NCBI GenBank assembly: GCA_041572575.1
Contig: JBFFSH010000036.1
Span: 1-25,491 of the forward strand
DNA length: 25,491 bases
Reading direction: 5' to 3'
Source: Thermodesulfobacteriota bacterium
GTDB lineage: Bacteria > Desulfobacterota_D > UBA1144 > Nemesobacterales > N074bin48
The position numbers were made by a program, and so were the translations under genes. Shown here piece after piece: positions 8,078 through 23,747 of the stretch; the stretch's first letter is position 1; each line of letters opens with the position of its first letter. Below the pieces are notes generated by a model. That model saw nothing but the letters and a program-made list of their open reading frames with translations, ran no database searches and was not told where the DNA came from.

Positions 8078-10189
8078 TTAAGTACTTACGGTGATAACCT
8101 TGCGTTTGTTCTTGGACTTGCTTTCTTCAGCATCGTCGTCCTGAGCTTCTTTTTTTTCCGATGCTTTTTCTTTTTGCATCCGCTTTATGTTTTTACACTC
8201 AGGGTATCCGCTGCATCCATAAAACTTGCCGTAGCGGCTCTGTCTTATGACCATGGGCTTTCCGCATTTATCGCACTCTATATCACTTACTTCAGGCTCG
8301 ACTTTTTCTACTACCTTTACGTTTCCGTCTTCATCATAATGAAACGGTTTTGCATTTTTACACTCGGGGTACTTGGAGCATGATAGGAATTCCCCTCTTT
8401 TTCCCCATCTAATAATCATAGGCACTCCGCATTCGTTACAGTCAATCCCAGCGGGAACTCCGTCCCTTCTGAGACTTCTCATCTTTTCATCGGCTACAGA
8501 GAGGCGCTCTGAAAAACCCTTGTAGAAGTTCTTCATAAGCTCAACCCAATTGATGTCACCATCTTCTACCTTATCGAGCCTGTCTTCCATGTCGGCAGTA
8601 AACTTAATGTCCATGATTTCAGGAAAACCGTCTATGAGCATATCATTCACTGACTTTCCGAGCACCGTGGGTTTTAGCTTTCTCTGCTCGCGCTTAACAT
8701 ACTCTCTGTCCTGGATTGTTGAAATAATACTGGAATAAGTAGATGGTCTTCCTATTCCCTTTTCTTCAAGTTCTTTTACTAGCGAGCTTTCAGAAAACCT
8801 TGGAGGGGGCTGTGTGAAGTGCTGCTCCATTTTAAGGTCTTTTAGGTTTACGTCCTGATCTTTTTTGATATCGGGAAGTTTTTTATCTTCATCATCGCTC
8901 TGTTCTTCCTCTTCCTCTTTTCCCTCGGTATATACCTTGGAAAACCCTTCAAATTTTATTACAGAGCCTGTTGTTCTGAATGTTGCCTTGTCCGATGAAA
9001 TCTCTATTGAAGTCTGATCGTAAACAATAGGAGTCATCTGAGAAGCTAAGAACCTCTGCCATATAAGCTTGTAGAGCTCAAACTCATCATCTGCAAGATG
9101 GGCCTTTACTTTTTCAGGACTGTATTCAAATGATGTGGGCCTTATGGCTTCGTGCGCATCCTGAGCAGATTTCTTTACCTTATACTGGTTTGGTTTTTCT
9201 GGCAGAAACTTGTCGCCGTATTTATCCTTTATCAGGCTTCTTGATTCTGCAAGAGCCTGATCCGAGATACGCACAGAGTCGGTTCTCATATAAGTAATCA
9301 GCCCCATGGGTCCATCTGCACCAAGCTCAATTCCTTCGTAGAGCTTCTGTGCTATTGCCATCGTCTTTTTAACCGGATACCTCAGTTTCCTCGAAGCCTC
9401 CTGCTGAAGCGTGCTTGTAATAAATGGGGGCTGAGCCTTTCTTGTGCGCTCTTTTTTTTCTATGGATGATACTTTATAGTCGTTGTTTTTAATCTGGTTT
9501 GCAATTGATTGTGCCTGATCTTCTGTTCCTATCTCGATTTTGTCGCCATCGAACCGGACCAGGTTTGCTGAAAATGCAGATTTTCCATTTTGCTCAGCAA
9601 TAAAGTCTCCTTCTATACTCCAGTATTCCTTTGTTACAAACTTTTCAATCTCTCTTTCTCTTTCAACCACTATCCTAAGCGCCACACTCTGCACCCTGCC
9701 TGCACTAAGGCCCCTTCTCACTTTTTTCCACAGCAGCGGGCTTACCTGATATCCTACAAGCCTGTCGAGCACCCTTCTTGCCTGCTGGGCATCAAACCTG
9801 TCCATGCTAAGAGTGGTAGGGGAGTTAATTGATTCCTTGATAGCTTTTTCTGTTATTTCGTGAATCAGAATACGATATGATTTATCCTGAATTCCAAGCT
9901 GATCGGCAATATGCCACGCAATTGCTTCACCCTCTCTGTCTGGGTCTGAGGCAAGATACACGCTGTCGGCTTTTTGAGCGGCTTTTTGCAGTTTGGTTAA
10001 ATATTTCTTTTTATTCTTAATTACTTCATACTGGGGCTGGAAGTCATTTTCAATATCGACTCCAAGCTTACTCTTTGGAAGATCAATCAGATGACCGGAG
10101 GAAGCTTCTACGGTAAAATCCTTTCCAAGATAGTTCTTTATGGTCTTGGCCTTTGCCGGTGATTCTACTATTACAAGTGATTTAGGCAT
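8078..10189 (-). CDS. topA: DNA topoisomerase I with two C-terminal zinc ribbons
   Basis: LVIVESPAKAKTI, DPDREGEAIAWH, SAGRVQS, LITYMRTDS and AQDAHEAIRPT; C4 zinc-finger repeats. Confidence 0.98.
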   Translation of the reverse strand: MPKSLVIVESPAKAKTIKNYLGKDFTVEASSGHLIDLPKSKLGVDIENDFQPQYEVIKNKKKYLTKLQKAAQKADSVYLASDPDREGEAIAWHIADQLGIQDKSYRILIHEITEKAIKESINSPTTLSMDRFDAQQARRVLDRLVGYQVSPLLWKKVRRGLSAGRVQSVALRIVVEREREIEKFVTKEYWSIEGDFIAEQNGKSAFSANLVRFDGDKIEIGTEDQAQSIANQIKNNDYKVSSIEKKERTRKAQPPFITSTLQQEASRKLRYPVKKTMAIAQKLYEGIELGADGPMGLITYMRTDSVRISDQALAESRSLIKDKYGDKFLPEKPNQYKVKKSAQDAHEAIRPTSFEYSPEKVKAHLADDEFELYKLIWQRFLASQMTPIVYDQTSIEISSDKATFRTTGSVIKFEGFSKVYTEGKEEEEEQSDDEDKKLPDIKKDQDVNLKDLKMEQHFTQPPPRFSESSLVKELEEKGIGRPSTYSSIISTIQDREYVKREQRKLKPTVLGKSVNDMLIDGFPEIMDIKFTADMEDRLDKVEDGDINWVELMKNFYKGFSERLSVADEKMRSLRRDGVPAGIDCNECGVPMIIRWGKRGEFLSCSKYPECKNAKPFHYDEDGNVKVVEKVEPEVSDIECDKCGKPMVIRQSRYGKFYGCSGYPECKNIKRMQKEKASEKKEAQDDDAEESKSKNKRKVITVST

Positions 10190-10426
10190 ATTTATCTTCT
10201 GACACTAATTTCAAATGATAATAACCACATATTTATTAAAATTACAAATTAATAATGTTTAAATAAGGTAAACAAAGATTATTTAAATCAAAATATTATT
10301 TTTAAAACAGGTATAAAACAAGAGCAAGTATACGCTTGGTAGCAATGAGGAAAAATCTATAAAACTGTTAGGGTTTTTTATATTATCTATAACCCGGACA
10401 AGATATAAAAGCTTTTAGAAGTGGTA

Positions 10427-11110
10427 TCAAATAAGCTTATTTTTAAAACAGTAAAGAATAAGCTCTGATCTGTTTTTTACCTTTAATTTCTTAAATGTCT
10501 TATAGAGGTGAAATTTTACGGTTTTTTCGCTCAGATAAAGATGATCGGCAATTGCCCTGTTGCTAAGCCCCTGTAAAACCAGTTTTACTATTCTGGACTC
10601 AGCCTCTGTAAGCTCTACAATTGTGCTGTCTACTTTTTCAGTATCTGCCTTATTTTCATTTATTACGTCTTTTACCACTCTTGAGAGGATTCTTCTTTCT
10701 ACCCAGAGCTCATTCTGGCAGACTCCCTTTACCGCTTTTCTCAAGTGACTTGAATCAGAACCAGTCAGCACATAACCGCTTGCACCAGCTCTAATTGTTT
10801 TTACTAGTACTTCGTCTTCATATTCTTTATTAAGAAGCACAAGTATTTTAATATTGCTGTTTTTATTAATTAAATTTTTTATTTTAGATACTTCAAACCC
10901 AGGCAGTTCATACTCTATAACAAACACATCTACCGAAGTGTTTTTATAGTGTTCAAAAACATCCAGAAGGCTTGTAATTTTCTGAACCACTTTTAAATCA
11001 GCGTCTTCTTCTATAAGTTTTTTTATTCCCTCACCCAGTATTGATGAACTGCATCCAAGAAGAATCTGAATGCTGTCCGTACTTTCCTCAGCGCTTGCGG
11101 TTTTGTTCAT
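10427..11110 (-). CDS. NarL/LuxR-family response regulator with atypical receiver domain
   Basis: C-terminal LuxR HTH (LTEAE..GLSNRAIADHLYLSEKTVKFH..KKLKVKNRSEL); N-terminal receiver-like fold (AGASGYVL). Confidence 0.88.
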   Translation of the reverse strand: MNKTASAEESTDSIQILLGCSSSILGEGIKKLIEEDADLKVVQKITSLLDVFEHYKNTSVDVFVIEYELPGFEVSKIKNLINKNSNIKILVLLNKEYEDEVLVKTIRAGASGYVLTGSDSSHLRKAVKGVCQNELWVERRILSRVVKDVINENKADTEKVDSTIVELTEAESRIVKLVLQGLSNRAIADHLYLSEKTVKFHLYKTFKKLKVKNRSELILYCFKNKLI

Positions 11111-11228
11111 TTAAACACCTTCATCATGTATTTTTACTACTAACCAGCATTTTATTACAAATTATATTTATTATAAACCAATTTGAGCAAAATTATAACC
11201 GTTTATCTGATTATTCTATAAATATTTA

Positions 11229-12335
11229 TCAAACAAGCTCAAAATACTTGCCCGGAAGCTGAGAGACTATGCCTTTTATCTCCAGATTTAATAGATCAGT
11301 GAGAACCCGGGAGCTGTCAAGCCCGGTGTTTTTTATTATTTGATCAACGTGATGCTGGCCTTCCTTAAGAACCTTATAAATAATTTTTTCCGAATTTTCC
11401 AGACTCTCAATGTCCACTTCATTTCTTCGTGGAAGCTCTTTTCTTACCCCCGTAATACCCTCTATCTCTTCCAGGATATCATCAACTGTGTTTACAAGTT
11501 TTGCTCCTTTTTTAATAAGCCTGTTTGTTCCCCTGCTAAGATTGCTTCCTATGTTTCCGGGAATTGCGAATACTTCCCTGTTTTGCTCAAGCGCAAACTC
11601 CGCTGTAATAAGGGAGCCGCTTTTTTGTGCTGCCTGAACAACAAGCACTCCCACCGAGAGGCCGCTAATAATCCTGTTTCTTCTTGGAAAGTTTACTGCA
11701 ACAGGCCCCGTTCCAATGGCAAACTCAGAAATCACAGCTCCGTTACTCTCAATTTCTTTATATAATGTAGCGTTTTCTGAGGGATAGACCACATCAATGC
11801 CTGAGCCAAGTACTGCAATAGTTCTGCCTCCTGCCTTTAGGCATGCCTTGTGAGCTATTGTATCTATACCCCGGGCAAAACCGCTTACAACCGTATAGCC
11901 ATTCACTGCAAGCTCACCCGCAATCTGCTCGGTCACTTTTTTACCATATGTATCCGAGAGTCTGCTCCCTACGATTCCTATTGACCTGTGATCCTGCTCC
12001 ACTATATTTCCTCTCATATAAAAATAAGGCGGAGGGTTATAAATGTTCTTAAGATTATCGGGATAGGCAGGGTCTGACATTACCATTAGCCGCAGATTTA
12101 GTTTTTTTATTTTTTGAAGCTCTTTTTCTACAGATTCCCAGTCATCAAACGACTTAATGAGTTTAACCGTATCGGGACTGATACCCTCAATCTGTAAAAA
12201 CTCTTTTGGACCGGCTTCGAATACTTCTTTTGGAGAAGAAAAATGAGAAAGGAGTCTTTTATATAAAACCTCTCCGATTCCTTTTACATTTTTAAGAGCT
12301 ATCCAGTGCAGATATTCATCCATAGCAATTTGCAA
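11229..12335 (-). CDS. dprA: DNA processing protein DprA (Smf)
   Basis: IVGSR, VSGFARGIDTIAH, FPRRNRIISGLS and SGSLITA; C-terminal winged helix; upstream of topA as commonly seen. Confidence 0.97.
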   Translation of the reverse strand: MQIAMDEYLHWIALKNVKGIGEVLYKRLLSHFSSPKEVFEAGPKEFLQIEGISPDTVKLIKSFDDWESVEKELQKIKKLNLRLMVMSDPAYPDNLKNIYNPPPYFYMRGNIVEQDHRSIGIVGSRLSDTYGKKVTEQIAGELAVNGYTVVSGFARGIDTIAHKACLKAGGRTIAVLGSGIDVVYPSENATLYKEIESNGAVISEFAIGTGPVAVNFPRRNRIISGLSVGVLVVQAAQKSGSLITAEFALEQNREVFAIPGNIGSNLSRGTNRLIKKGAKLVNTVDDILEEIEGITGVRKELPRRNEVDIESLENSEKIIYKVLKEGQHHVDQIIKNTGLDSSRVLTDLLNLEIKGIVSQLPGKYFELV

Positions 12336-19321: not shown

Positions 19322-20185
19322 ATGGGACGAATCGAAAGAATCCTTAGCAAAGTAGATTCATTTAATGAAACAGGCAGATTTGAAGAGGCTATAAAAGAAC
19401 TCAATAAGGCAATAGACATTGCCCCGGACGACCCCGATGTGCTGTTATCCTTTGCACTTACATATGATGCAATGAACGATCTGGATACTTCGGTTACATA
19501 TTTTCACAAAGCTATTGAACAATGCCCCGAAGATGCCTACCTCTGGACACAGTATGGCATAACACTCTCAAGAAACAATAAACATCATAAGGCTATTAAA
19601 ATTTTTCAGCATGCTCTAATTCTCGACCCAATTTACTCAATTGCCAAATGGAACCTTGGCCTTACATACAGATCCATTGGGCACTATGAAGATGCCGTGA
19701 GAGAGTTTAAGGAGTGTTTGGAAATAGAGCCTGACTCTGAATACTTTAAAGATGAAATACATTATCACCTGGGGCTTTGTTATTTTGATATGGGATGGAC
19801 CACTGAGGCTATATCAGAGTTCAGAAAGCACACTGAGATATATCCTGATGATATGTTTTCTCATTTATCCCTTGGCAACTGCTTTTTTGACCTTGGCTGG
19901 ATAGACGAGTCTGTAGACAGGTTTAGATTCATAATTGAGAAAAGCCCTGCATTTATTCCGGCCTATAATTCTCTTGCCTTATCATATGCCGAAAAAGGGT
20001 GGTACGATGAAGCGCTTGAAACACTTCGTGAAGCCCTGGAAATCGCACCCGATGATGAATCGGTAAAAGAAAATATAGATTATATCGAGGGCCTTAAAGA
20101 CAACGAAGACGGCCTGCGCTCATTTATAATGTATCTTCTTCTTAAAAACAAACTAGGTATCGATTCCTTCTCAGAATCAAACTAA
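19322..20185 (+). CDS. Tetratricopeptide repeat protein
   Basis: About seven 34-aa-spaced repeats with LG..Y...G...EA...F......P patterns; RBS GGGGAG. Confidence 0.9.
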   Translation: MGRIERILSKVDSFNETGRFEEAIKELNKAIDIAPDDPDVLLSFALTYDAMNDLDTSVTYFHKAIEQCPEDAYLWTQYGITLSRNNKHHKAIKIFQHALILDPIYSIAKWNLGLTYRSIGHYEDAVREFKECLEIEPDSEYFKDEIHYHLGLCYFDMGWTTEAISEFRKHTEIYPDDMFSHLSLGNCFFDLGWIDESVDRFRFIIEKSPAFIPAYNSLALSYAEKGWYDEALETLREALEIAPDDESVKENIDYIEGLKDNEDGLRSFIMYLLLKNKLGIDSFSESN

Positions 20186-20216: not shown

Positions 20217-20255
20217 GTCCCCGTAGCTCAGCAGGATAGAGCGCAGGATTCCTAA
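20217..20255 (+). tRNA. tRNA-Arg(CCT), 5' half only (ends at the anticodon loop)
   Basis: GTCCCCG-TA-GCTC-AGCAGGATA-GAGC-G-CAGGA-TTCCTAA gives the acceptor 5' strand, D arm, anticodon 5' stem and a 7-nt loop with CCT. The expected TCCTG, T arm and CGGGGAC do not follow. Confidence 0.88.
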
Positions 20256-20395
20256 ACCATCCAAGGATCAATGCAGGCAAATCTATACTAAGCTATACTA
20301 AACCTAAACCACTGTAATTATTGAATAAGTCAACATATGTAAAATATAGCCAAACATAGCAAATCAATACTAAATGGACACCTATTTGGACACCT
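20256..20395. repeat. att-arm-like direct repeats at the island boundary
   Basis: CTATACTAA twice (20283, 20293), TGGACACCT twice (20375, 20387) and degenerate 10-bp-period copies at about 20345-20373. Confidence 0.65.
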
Positions 20396-20616: not shown

Positions 20617-21176
20617 ATGGAATCAGAAATACATTTATATAGAATAGATGATACTGATGCAAATTATATATCATGGGCTCCTGTCGAATGTGCAATAAAG
20701 TTAGTGAATACCCAAGGCCAAAACAATCCTATTAATGTCAAGTTAAAAAACAAAAGCGCTAATCATGGTGGCAAGTAGTTTTTTACAATAAAATGCCAAG
20801 TGAACCACTAAATGAGTTAGAACTTACATTACCTGTAGATGGATCTCCCATGCTCTTTCATATGTCAGGCGAATTCGGCAAACCTAGCATAGAAGACAAA
20901 GATGCAATTGTATTAACCATTAATCAAACTACAGGAAATATAATTGGTGAAACCAAACTAATGGTTCGCATAAGAAAAAATGCCAATAATCTTAGTTCCG
21001 CTGAGCGAGACCGATTTATATCTGCTCTGGCAACATTAAATGATCGTGGTATGGGTAAATATAGCGATTTTAGAAATATTCATACGGATGCTGGTGAAGA
21101 TGAAGCACACGGACGTCCTGGATTTTTACCTTGGCACAGGGCTTTTATACTAGATTTGGAGAGAAAACAAAACTAA
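20617..21176 (+). pseudogene. Tyrosinase-family protein, frameshifted and truncated
   Basis: ATG 20617 gives MESEIHLY..ANYISWAPV..GGK*, shifting near 20770 to QVVFYNKMPSE..RKNANNLSSAERDRFISAL..IH..EAHGRPGFLPWHRAFILDLER. This is the CuA motif; CuB is absent. Confidence 0.8.
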
Positions 21177-22478
21177 CCCTCTCCACTCTCCCCCCCTAAA
21201 AGCTCCACTTCCTTTTCATAATCAAGCCCAAACTTGGAGTTAAATGTAGAGTCTGACATCGTGCCGGTCTGTTCTACGAGTGACTAGGAGCGGGCTTCGG
21301 CCTCAATGTCGCGGATGTTAAATGATGGGAATGCGAAGGAGCATTTTACAGATGCGTCACGTGGGAGTTTTCCTCTTGCTACAGCATGATTGATCACACG
21401 GCCGTAAATCCTGCAAAACTCTTCTTCTAATAACACCTGCTTTTCCTCAATGCTCTTTGCAAGAGTAATCATGCGGTAGTCTATTTCGGCTTCGGATGAG
21501 CCCAGGTTGGGACTCTTAAACTCAATCTCGCTCTCTGCATCGATGCTCATATGAGTTCCGGCCGTGGGGAGTTTTTTTTTATTAGTTCTTGATCCCCTGT
21601 GCGACTTGTTCTTGTCGACAACTCCCTGAAGCTCGGATGAACCCCCGCGTTTTTTATGCACTATCACTACAGAAGAGCATATCTTGTTGAGCATCACACG
21701 GTATTTTCTGAAGTCCTGAAGTTCTTTTAGGTCATAAAGAACAGGCTCAAGCTTATAGCGGCCTCTTTTTTTCATTTTCATCCACATTAATCTTTATATG
21801 CTGTATCTCGGCGGGGTCTATGATCTCTTCAGAATCTGTATGAGGGTTTTGTATTCTGTAGTTTCTGCCCCTCGATATATCGCTTGTCTCTATCTCAATG
21901 CTGTGAGAAATGTCTGGATTATCAGAATCTATCCAGTCAGGCTCTATAAAATGGAAACGGAGAGTGGATTCATTTAAAAAGCGCAGAATACTCTCACCGT
22001 CCCTGAATGTCCGGCGGGCAATCTCAAGCTGTTTTTTTCTCCAGTTGTTCTCCATACAGAAGTTTTCCCATATTTTGGTATGAGCCTGTTTCTGCTTTTC
22101 ATCAAGAGACGGGTCTAATATTAAATTCGCCCCAGAGCCTATTGTAAGCTGAACAAGGGCTTTTATTATCCCCCTTGCATGCGGGTTTGTGTAGTATGCA
22201 AGATAATCCGCGGATCTGATCTCCTTTTACTCGAGCCTAGGAAGCTCCTTTTCCACCTTGCCGCCTACCCTGAATGTATCTCCACCCATAAGAGTCCAAG
22301 AAGACTCATCAATATCGGCAATCCTGCCGCCTGTTCGGGAAAGGGATGTACTCTGAGCGTCATTTAAATTGTTGCTTAGAACCGCGGACACAGTCCTTCC
22401 ATAAAAAGTTTTTCTATTATGTTTATATTTTCGTTAAAGTGATTTCAGGTTTTGAGATTATTTGGGGAAATTAGCCAT
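21173..22478 (-). pseudogene. Phage portal protein remnant
   Basis: Reading through stops gives YYTNPHARGIIKALVQLTIGSG..WENF..RRTFRDGESILRF..IQHIKINVDENEK / RGRYKLEPVL..FAFPSF..KFGLDYEKE. It has several in-frame stops and a frameshift in an A7 run near 21766-21772. Confidence 0.72.
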
Positions 22479-22916: not shown

Positions 22917-23747
22917 ATGACAGAAGGCAAACAAGTATCAGAACATTATTCCCATGGAAACCTGCTCGAGGCCATCGAGGACGCTCTTTCCAAGCTCGGT
23001 AAGTCACCCAAAAATGTGACAATACATGACCTTGCACCCGTGGATGAATTCCATATAGGCGGAAGGCAGGCTACTGAGAGGTTTTTAAAACAGCTCGAAT
23101 TTCCGCAAAAAGGGCACATACTGGACGTAGGCTGCGGTCTTGGCGGAGCGGCGAGGTTTGTGGCTGATATGTTTGACCATCTTGTCTCGGGTATAGACCT
23201 TACAAAAGAATACATAGACACAGGAAATGCGCTCTGCGCGTGGGTGGGGCTTGATAACCACATAACCCTTCATGAGGGAAGCGCCCTCTCCATGCCCTTT
23301 GAGAGCGAGACGTTTGACGGCGCGTACATGATGCATGTGGGAATGAACATAAAAGATAAGGAAGGACTTTTTAAAGAGGTGTACAGGGTGCTAAAGCCTG
23401 GGGCCGTGTTTGGGGTGTATGATGTGATGCGCGACTCTGCGGGAGAGCTTGCCTACCCCGTACCGTGGGCTACGGACAGCTCCACAAGCCACCTAGGCAC
23501 CCCTTCTGAGTACTCACAGGCTCTGGGTGAAATGGGGTTTGAGGTGCTTGAGATAAATAACCGTATAGATTTTGCCATGGAATTTTTCCGTCAGTTAAAA
23601 GAAAAAACGGAAGATGCCGAAAGCACTCCGCCCCTTGGTCTTCATACCCTTATGCAAAAGACTACAGCCGAGAAGGTAAAGAATATGATAGACAATATCG
23701 CAAATGGAATAATCGCCCCAGTTGAGATTGTTGCTAAGAAGGTGTGA
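22917..23747 (+). CDS. Class I SAM-dependent methyltransferase (sarcosine/dimethylglycine N-methyltransferase-like)
   Basis: DLAPVDEFHIGG, ILDVGCGLGG (motif I), GIDLT, MPFESETFD, RVLKPG and YPVPWA; RBS AAGGAG. Substrate is uncertain. Confidence 0.88.
   Translation: MTEGKQVSEHYSHGNLLEAIEDALSKLGKSPKNVTIHDLAPVDEFHIGGRQATERFLKQLEFPQKGHILDVGCGLGGAARFVADMFDHLVSGIDLTKEYIDTGNALCAWVGLDNHITLHEGSALSMPFESETFDGAYMMHVGMNIKDKEGLFKEVYRVLKPGAVFGVYDVMRDSAGELAYPVPWATDSSTSHLGTPSEYSQALGEMGFEVLEINNRIDFAMEFFRQLKEKTEDAESTPPLGLHTLMQKTTAEKVKNMIDNIANGIIAPVEIVAKKV

Follow-up and report, generated by a model that had tools for sequence, protein, structure and literature searches.

An element in which the orientation of the target gene is reversed was reportedly described by Zhao and Williams in 2002 (J Bacteriol 184:859). 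Where tyrosine integrases target tRNA genes, it is usually the 3′ half of the gene that is replaced, as the initial annotation of the locus discussed here had rightly assumed, and replacement of the 5′ half represents a documented minority; of the 3919 islands counted in Islander, 159 have a 5′ fragment and 2083 an anticodon-centered site (Hudson et al. 2015, PMC4383910). A paper citing Zhao and Williams 2002 describes recombination at the 5′ part of a tRNA gene as being considerably rarer than recombination at the 3′ part (PMC6563490). As characterized by that citing paper, the Zhao and Williams element shares with the present locus replacement of the 5′ part of a tRNA gene (PMC6563490) and differs from it in that one arm-motif family shows both polarities here.

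The locus analyzed in this study shares with the 5′-fragment islands of Islander a tRNA end fragment in a probably upstream position, what appears to be a restored gene elsewhere, an apparently anticodon-centered (A-site) crossover and a tyrosine integrase, the last of these in complete relatives. It is unlike them in that its island is split over contigs and its cognate-clade integrase is missing from the assembly, and in that ends belonging to two arm-motif clades are present at the site. We propose, with considerable confidence, that the tRNA fragment is the displaced host half of an att site, left by a 5′-type tyrosine-integrase island which entered tRNA-Arg(CCT), and that a second, continuous copy of the gene is represented by contig C125 of the same genome.

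The tRNA fragment and probable island end in the window

The window, i.e., the whole 25,491-nucleotide stretch that was analyzed, is the entire contig C36 of genome G000, an assembly of 2.6 Mb in 137 contigs, and its features are collected in Table 1. The 39-nt 5′ half previously noted 31 nt past the stop codon of the TPR gene (position 20185) was confirmed, its final nucleotide being also that of the 7-nt loop. It starts at tRNA position 1, thus representing an end fragment rather than an internal one, and matches, at 39 of 39 nt, the intact tRNA-Arg(CCT) genes called by ARAGORN in loci L058, L087, and L231 to L233, while a single D-loop difference separates it from the C125 copy. The reported absence of a 3′ half was borne out by searches of the window, in which ARAGORN called no tRNA; Rfam called nothing at the 5′ half. 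The crossover is placed in the anticodon loop on the grounds that a 3′ fragment on contig C5 begins one base before the loop and that, in other genomes, fragments adjoining the arm motif have a terminus in the vicinity of the loop.

No tyrosine integrase was found in the window between positions 20256 and 25491, ten PF00589 matches being present genome-wide, and the GC contents of the island part (0.405) and the host part (0.394) of the window are equal. As C36 breaks within the repeat at its right end, the far end of the island cannot be followed.

Table 1. Features assigned to the window around the tRNA-Arg(CCT) site
Feature	Positions	Strand	Basis
Host gene for a TPR-repeat protein of 287 aa, flanking the tRNA-Arg(CCT) site on the left	19322..20185	+	Pfam TPR; intact tRNA-Arg(CCT) next in L231-L233
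tRNA-Arg(CCT) 5′ half, probable displaced host copy (acceptor 5′ strand, D arm, anticodon 5′ stem and loop)	20217..20255	+	39/39 nt versus relatives' intact genes
Anticodon loop, putative 7-bp crossover (overlap) region; anticodon at 20251-20253	20249..20255	+	tRNA identity stops here
Island end (integrase-distal), A+T-rich spacer from core to arm repeat	20256..20375	+	77% over 94 nt versus motif-bearing end of G001 (L047); same start in L228
Direct repeat GGACACC-N5-GGACACC, putative integrase arm-type binding pair (P2-type)	20376..20394	+	Sequence and position
Cargo: tyrosinase-like ORF, truncated	20793..21176	+	Pfam PF00264, only profile positions 3-43 of 214
Cargo: portal-like reading frames, broken	21284..22430	-	Weak PF05136 match at 21753-22055, E 0.00087, under cut-off; no PHROG match
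Probable cargo: SAM-dependent methyltransferase	22917..23747	+	Pfam PF08241; island membership suggested by position
Repeated end sequence, likely IS terminus, contig break	25348..25491	.	98-100% identical to ends of C22, C77, C54, C26, C98, C25, C8

Group I introns occur in tRNA-Arg(CCU) of alphaproteobacteria. Such an intron was rejected as an explanation of the split gene, there being no Rfam intron family in the window up to an E value of 1 and no 3′ exon in the window. Also rejected was an intron-containing "tRNA-Arg(tct)" called by ARAGORN on contig C3, which looks like coding sequence.

A second, continuous tRNA-Arg(CCT) copy on C125

The fragment is real, and the headline under which it was first described, namely, that the tRNA was not restored, is wrong. 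At C125:3188-3226, a further 5′ half, preceded by a different sequence, reads directly into 11 nt of the 3′ half up to the contig end (C125:3188-3237). Among the 43 tRNA calls made by ARAGORN in this genome there is no full tRNA-Arg(CCT), because C125 ends inside the gene; a tRNA-Arg(TCT) is itself truncated by the end of contig C84. The proposed search for other Arg-CCT/TCT genes yielded this truncated TCT gene and no full CCT gene, and that for the missing 3′ half detected no intact Arg(CCT) 3′ half by pattern in the assembly, the copy on C5 having emerged via an end overlap.

Contigs of two sequencing runs carry the C125 gene further. A 2997-nt contig of run X6 extends the C125-type half by 41 nt, which span the core through the acceptor 3′ strand short of the last acceptor bases and the discriminator, with a depth of 15.6 compared to 15.4 for a chromosome contig, and its 3′ part differs by one letter from the C5 copy. 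In run X7, a 1980-nt contig carries the C125 half to 22 nt past the loop, and a two-record consensus of the loose end displays a canonical T loop. Since both runs are possibly the source of this DNA, they extend the assembly rather than provide independent support. The C125 end and the run contigs together thus contain the full-length cognate tRNA in the same genome, short of the last acceptor bases.

The upstream flank of the C125 gene harbors a reversed TCTAACC-like arm pair with its spacer and resembles the end that follows tRNA-Leu(GAG) on contig C65; its arm is of the C65/C84 clade type and not of the P2-type observed in the window. A P2-type arm and cognate integrase were not found upstream of the C125 gene, and the integrase of C125 itself is a short remnant only, with 81% identity over 37 amino acids to the C65 integrase. 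Just before this remnant, a 73-nt stretch (L037 2450-2522) has matches of 85 to 89% at three places in G001.

Because C36 ends in a repeat and C125 begins in an IS3-like frame, the linkage and relative orientation of the two contigs are unproven. No contig links them, contig-end overlaps having stopped at repeats with only C108-C125 and C103-C10 joined. When the right flank was sought by synteny, the genes found downstream of the tRNA in relatives mapped to C59, C6, and C5, with no tRNA piece beside those on C59, and the flank was not located in this way. A consensus scan for a promoter upstream of the C125 gene, with 0 found and 1.1 expected, was uninformative, as was a looser scan (4+4 of 12). 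A 26-nt pattern from C125 had no matches in the metagenome collection, which may exclude this genome's own records.

The tRNA-Arg(CCT) site in relatives

Comparison of the TPR-tRNA locus, as initially recommended, revealed the site in unbroken, split, and tRNA-less forms. Among the 80 loci listed in a search with the TPR protein, seven showed at least 84% identity, of which three (L231 to L233) have an intact tRNA at the site, one (L228) has the fragment, one (L230) has no tRNA, and two stop short of it. In L228, which is a contig from a metagenome and encodes a TPR protein of 98% identity, both the break and the 11 bases after it are those of the window, while G001, a genome of the same genus, carries a 5′ fragment 4 nt longer behind the same TPR gene. 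Over 2440 nt reaching to the anticodon arm, L231 to L233 share 99.7 to 99.96% identity with G001; past this point, the former continue as an intact tRNA and the latter as an arm-bearing end. On these alignments, the sister species occurs both unbroken and split at this site; an unbroken site was thus found in the sister species and not in the window's own species.

The 5′-half pattern was matched in 47 of the 61 genomes searched and occurred twice in five of them (G000, G004, G009, G035, and G055), the last four each having one fragment and one intact tRNA-Arg(CCT). The full layout is present on the single 3.1-Mb contig of G055, where a 5′ fragment is followed by an arm repeat, approximately 18 kb of sequence, an integrase, a further arm repeat, and the intact tRNA-Arg(CCT). 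The integrase, of 367 amino acids, is 47% identical to the enzyme encoded on contig C10 of G000 and points at the intact gene. A fragment situated upstream of, and co-oriented with, an intact gene at a distance of 2 to 200 kb was found in G055 (18 kb) and G009 (10.5 kb), and a tyrosine integrase is present in the counterpart islands of G055 and G035. G009 displays the same 5′ polarity with an integrase of the other clade (C65/C84) beside the element-side 5′ half. Such pairs of fragment and intact gene in G055, G009, G004, and G035, coupled with C125 and the run contigs which extend it, support the first of the three options originally offered, i.e., that the element rebuilds the tRNA with a 5′ half of its own.

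Two further observations concern these relatives. In the G009 island (L086 2989 and 13512), approximately 85 nt upstream of the tRNA are duplicated, a stretch which is probably the host promoter, and a second integrase directly follows the intact gene. In G004, the intact tRNA-Arg(CCT) (L094 4943-5019) bears two D-arm substitutions compared to the stranded host half.

The same comparisons bear on the possibility that the tRNA was destroyed and dispensable, or that the break is an assembly or binning artefact. The missing ARAGORN call would fit such a loss, as would G001, which is 74% complete and shows only the fragment, and L230, where the site is without a tRNA. The missing call is, however, explained by the end of contig C125; the junction recurs in L228, an independent contig, and behind the TPR gene in G001, contradicting a misassembly at position 20255; and the 5′-half pattern is widespread among the genomes searched. 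The continuous gene in run X6 largely refutes destruction and artefact alike, leaving them very unlikely, and for this genome the reading of a destroyed tRNA lacks support.

The orphan 3′ half on C5 and the possible excision switch

An orphan 3′ half of tRNA-Arg(CCT), starting at the loop, is located on the minus strand of contig C5 (C5:41068-41109) and is considered real because a single 38-kb contig of run X6 spans the locus. It bears two substitutions, in the T loop and the acceptor, relative to the intact genes of relatives, and the adjoining end (L036 11068-11250 minus; C5 at approximately 41068-41250) contains two kinds of arm-like repeats, namely, a TCTAACC pair and TTGCAC repeats. The surroundings are host-like, with a TPR gene and cytochrome c maturation-like genes at approximately 370 nt, and no integrase was found near this 3′ half. 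In a separate observation, short contigs carrying the variant 3′ half (L036 11069-11109) have roughly twice the chromosome depth (49.9 versus 24.4 in X7; 17 versus 8 in X15), which weakly hints at another 3′ half missing from the assembly, although depth does not equate to copy number.

Excision-controlled genes constitute what is termed regulated gene integrity. With such systems the present locus shares a gene piece cut at the att core; it differs in that the target gene is whole while the element is integrated, and excision is thus not needed to make it. A switch of this kind had been raised for the window; in the version considered here, the window half and the C5 3′ half would be the two ends of one element whose excision rebuilds the only AGG-reading tRNA. 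It could draw on the C5 half itself, real in X6 and beginning at the loop, and on the use of AGG, which is common in this genome: AGG accounts for 72 of the 187 Arg codons in the 12 host genes of the window and for 5914 of 20660 in long open frames of the genome, and the two AGG codons earlier pointed out in the recG segment QLRGRVGRG were read correctly. In run X15, moreover, two paths leave the TPR-side contig at the loop, one being the island end and the other a 37-nt contig that combines a window-type half with 7 unseen letters, just as many as a merger with the C125 path would require; this weak hint may reflect an unbroken allele or a tRNA from a different organism. Although filed as RNA, X15 has a flat, DNA-like depth and thus gives no information on expression.

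Such a switch requires a broken gene and matched ends, neither of which holds. A continuous gene already exists at chromosome depth in X6, and the two ends differ in their arm motifs, being of the P2-type in the window (C36) and comprising the TCTAACC pair and TTGCAC repeats on C5, where the half is, in addition, substituted. No rejoining joint was listed for the window (X11, X7, X15, and X17) or for C5 (X7, X6, X15, and X12), in a search confined to contigs, which drop rare forms, with X7 and X11 lacking coverage of the window's own sequence. The tRNA-Arg(TCT) on C84 may also be relevant, given that the E. coli UCU tRNA also reads AGG and thereby renders the CCU tRNA dispensable (PMC4652775). 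Excision of the island would leave the tRNA whole both before and after. A translational switch is therefore unlikely, and the particular pairing of the window half with the C5 half is exceedingly so.

Proposed history of the site

The preferred reading is that of a 5′-type island. A tyrosine-integrase island would have crossed over within the anticodon loop of tRNA-Arg(CCT), bringing its own 5′ half and thereby stranding the host 5′ half behind the TPR gene. Transcription of the restored gene, which would contain the element-supplied 5′ half and is now on C125, may start at a promoter carried by the element or depend on read-through. More than one integration probably took place at the site, as the C125 flank and the C5 orphan half bear an arm motif belonging to a second integrase clade. 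The integrase of the first island seems to have been lost or left unassembled; repeated use of the site, followed by deletion or IS-driven rearrangement, would be the simplest reading. What stands against it is that the partner end of the window island, comprising an integrase, a P2-type arm, and a 5′ half, is not in the assembly.

A variant in which the island arrived in this manner and the intact gene was subsequently inverted relative to the fragment, e.g., across a 7-bp acceptor-stem repeat or between IS copies, appears rather unlikely; the C125 flank would then be a former 3′-side end, and the island would no longer be able to excise. This variant is suggested by the G001-like contig L230 (1692-2252), in which the C125 flank, at 71% over 520 nt and including the arm motif and a PilZ-like gene, lies reversed directly behind the TPR gene, a configuration possibly reflecting precise loss or inversion of the tRNA. 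It is also consistent with the resemblance of the reversed flank to the sequence after tRNA-Leu(GAG) and with the many G000 contig ends that are shared repeats. Against it, the C65/C84-clade integrase beside the element-side 5′ half in G009 indicates that a second 5′-type integration could produce such a flank without inversion, and C36 and C125 are not joined by any contig.

The arm-repeat family and its polarity

Based on its position and fixed spacing, the GGACACC repeat is predicted to represent an integrase arm-binding site. Allowing up to two mismatches, the 18-nt motif occurs at four sites in G000 (twice on C10, and on C36 and C71), each at a tRNA or tRNA fragment, and a looser form was absent from five base-shuffled genomes. 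Its core letters are shared with the P2-type arm consensus given in PMC3448106, where the P2-type phage integrases are placed mostly outside tRNA genes, whereas the arm family described here targets tRNA anticodon loops. The integrase proteins of this arm family have a general match to phrog_1.

Paired repeats on both sides of the core are present in the C10 island and in G055; for the window island, one side is seen. The 11-kb C10 island at tRNA-Pro(CGG) comprises a fragment (8-50), a motif at 170, the integrase gene (10069-11154), a second motif at 11073, and the intact gene (11169-11244), i.e., the same 5′-type layout as that deduced for the window. This island (L038, 8-11244), with arm repeats at both ends, encodes a 361-amino-acid integrase whose 3′ end is overlapped by the motif. 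On C71, the motif lies between the integrase and the 3′ end of tRNA-Asp, representing the usual polarity.

Other mobile elements were also apparent in G000. Islands or scars of the 3′ type occur at Arg(CCG), Asn(GTT), Arg(TCT), and Leu(GAG) on C52, C61/C68, C84/C37, and C65, respectively, with clade-specific paired repeats (TCTAACC, GCTACAG), and three of four Arg tRNAs are targeted. Contig C83 (11231 nt), whose ends overlap by 141 nt in a circular manner and which harbors ParA-like, replication-like, and short tyrosine-recombinase genes, is likely a small plasmid.

The exact motif was found at no fewer than 118 loci of the genome collection (approximately 280 estimated) and at 5 of the viral collection, these loci including kin and possibly repeating genomes counted among the relatives above. 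None of the viral loci has an intact tRNA and one has a 3′ fragment. Among the 123 loci listed, 94 have a tRNA or tRNA piece within approximately 300 nt. The motif faces the 3′ end of an intact tRNA in 33 cases and follows a 3′ fragment in 29; it precedes the 5′ end of an intact tRNA in 11, the far-end layout matching that of the window, and follows a 5′ fragment, as in the window itself, in 10, with 11 other tRNA layouts and 29 unclassified loci making up the remainder. The 5′ type therefore accounts for 21 of the 83 cleanly classed ends among the matches listed. From these matches, the arm repeat appears to mark tRNA att ends across many phyla.

The distance between motif and anticodon at far ends has a median of 108.5 nt for the 5′ type (n = 14) and 107 nt for the 3′ type (n = 35), and at fragment ends it has a median of 124 nt (n = 14, window included) and 135.5 nt (n = 28, 10 of them at 122 to 128 nt), respectively; the window motif, at 124 nt, coincides with the 5′-type median. 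Such spacing supports a fixed geometry in which the crossover occurs in the loop. As the two ends of the gene lie at approximately equal distances from the anticodon loop, either half could be carried with the core-to-arm spacing unchanged.

A phylogenetic tree was built from 16 integrase C-terminal parts and three outgroups, 33 of the 49 far ends having been left off as the stretches analyzed contained no integrase segment of at least 110 amino acids for them. On this tree, which is small and has eight open branches and two long rows, polarity requires four changes, three of them forced by well-supported branches, and a single clade for the 5′ type was rejected (p-AU of 1.5e-8; 8 versus 11 rows). 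The tRNA-Pro(CGG) integrases of G000 (5′ type) and G001 (3′ type, L049) are sisters with support of 99/96, are 61% identical over the compared part, and lie in opposite polarity at 132 and 131 nt. That the window island belongs to a widespread integrase family which switches polarity at its tRNA targets, the "rare" 5′ class being a recurring flip within that family, is a proposition for which we consider the odds to be even. A literature search that was thin on subscription papers, including the two most relevant ones, yielded no account of switching polarity inside a single arm-site family.

Implications

The window locus is likely the ordinary scar of a mobile island inserted the less common way round. 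It would add a new member to an already known minority class, and as a single locus the island matters little; a possible new point is the repeated change of polarity within one arm-site family. For draft genomes, a missing tRNA call is no evidence of loss, the partner here being hidden by the fragmented assembly. If the proposed switching is correct, repeated flips of polarity at a fixed geometry would explain the origin of 5′-replacing islands, and the two tRNA-Pro integrases would constitute a matched natural pair for the direction of integration and for the source of the promoter of the restored tRNA.
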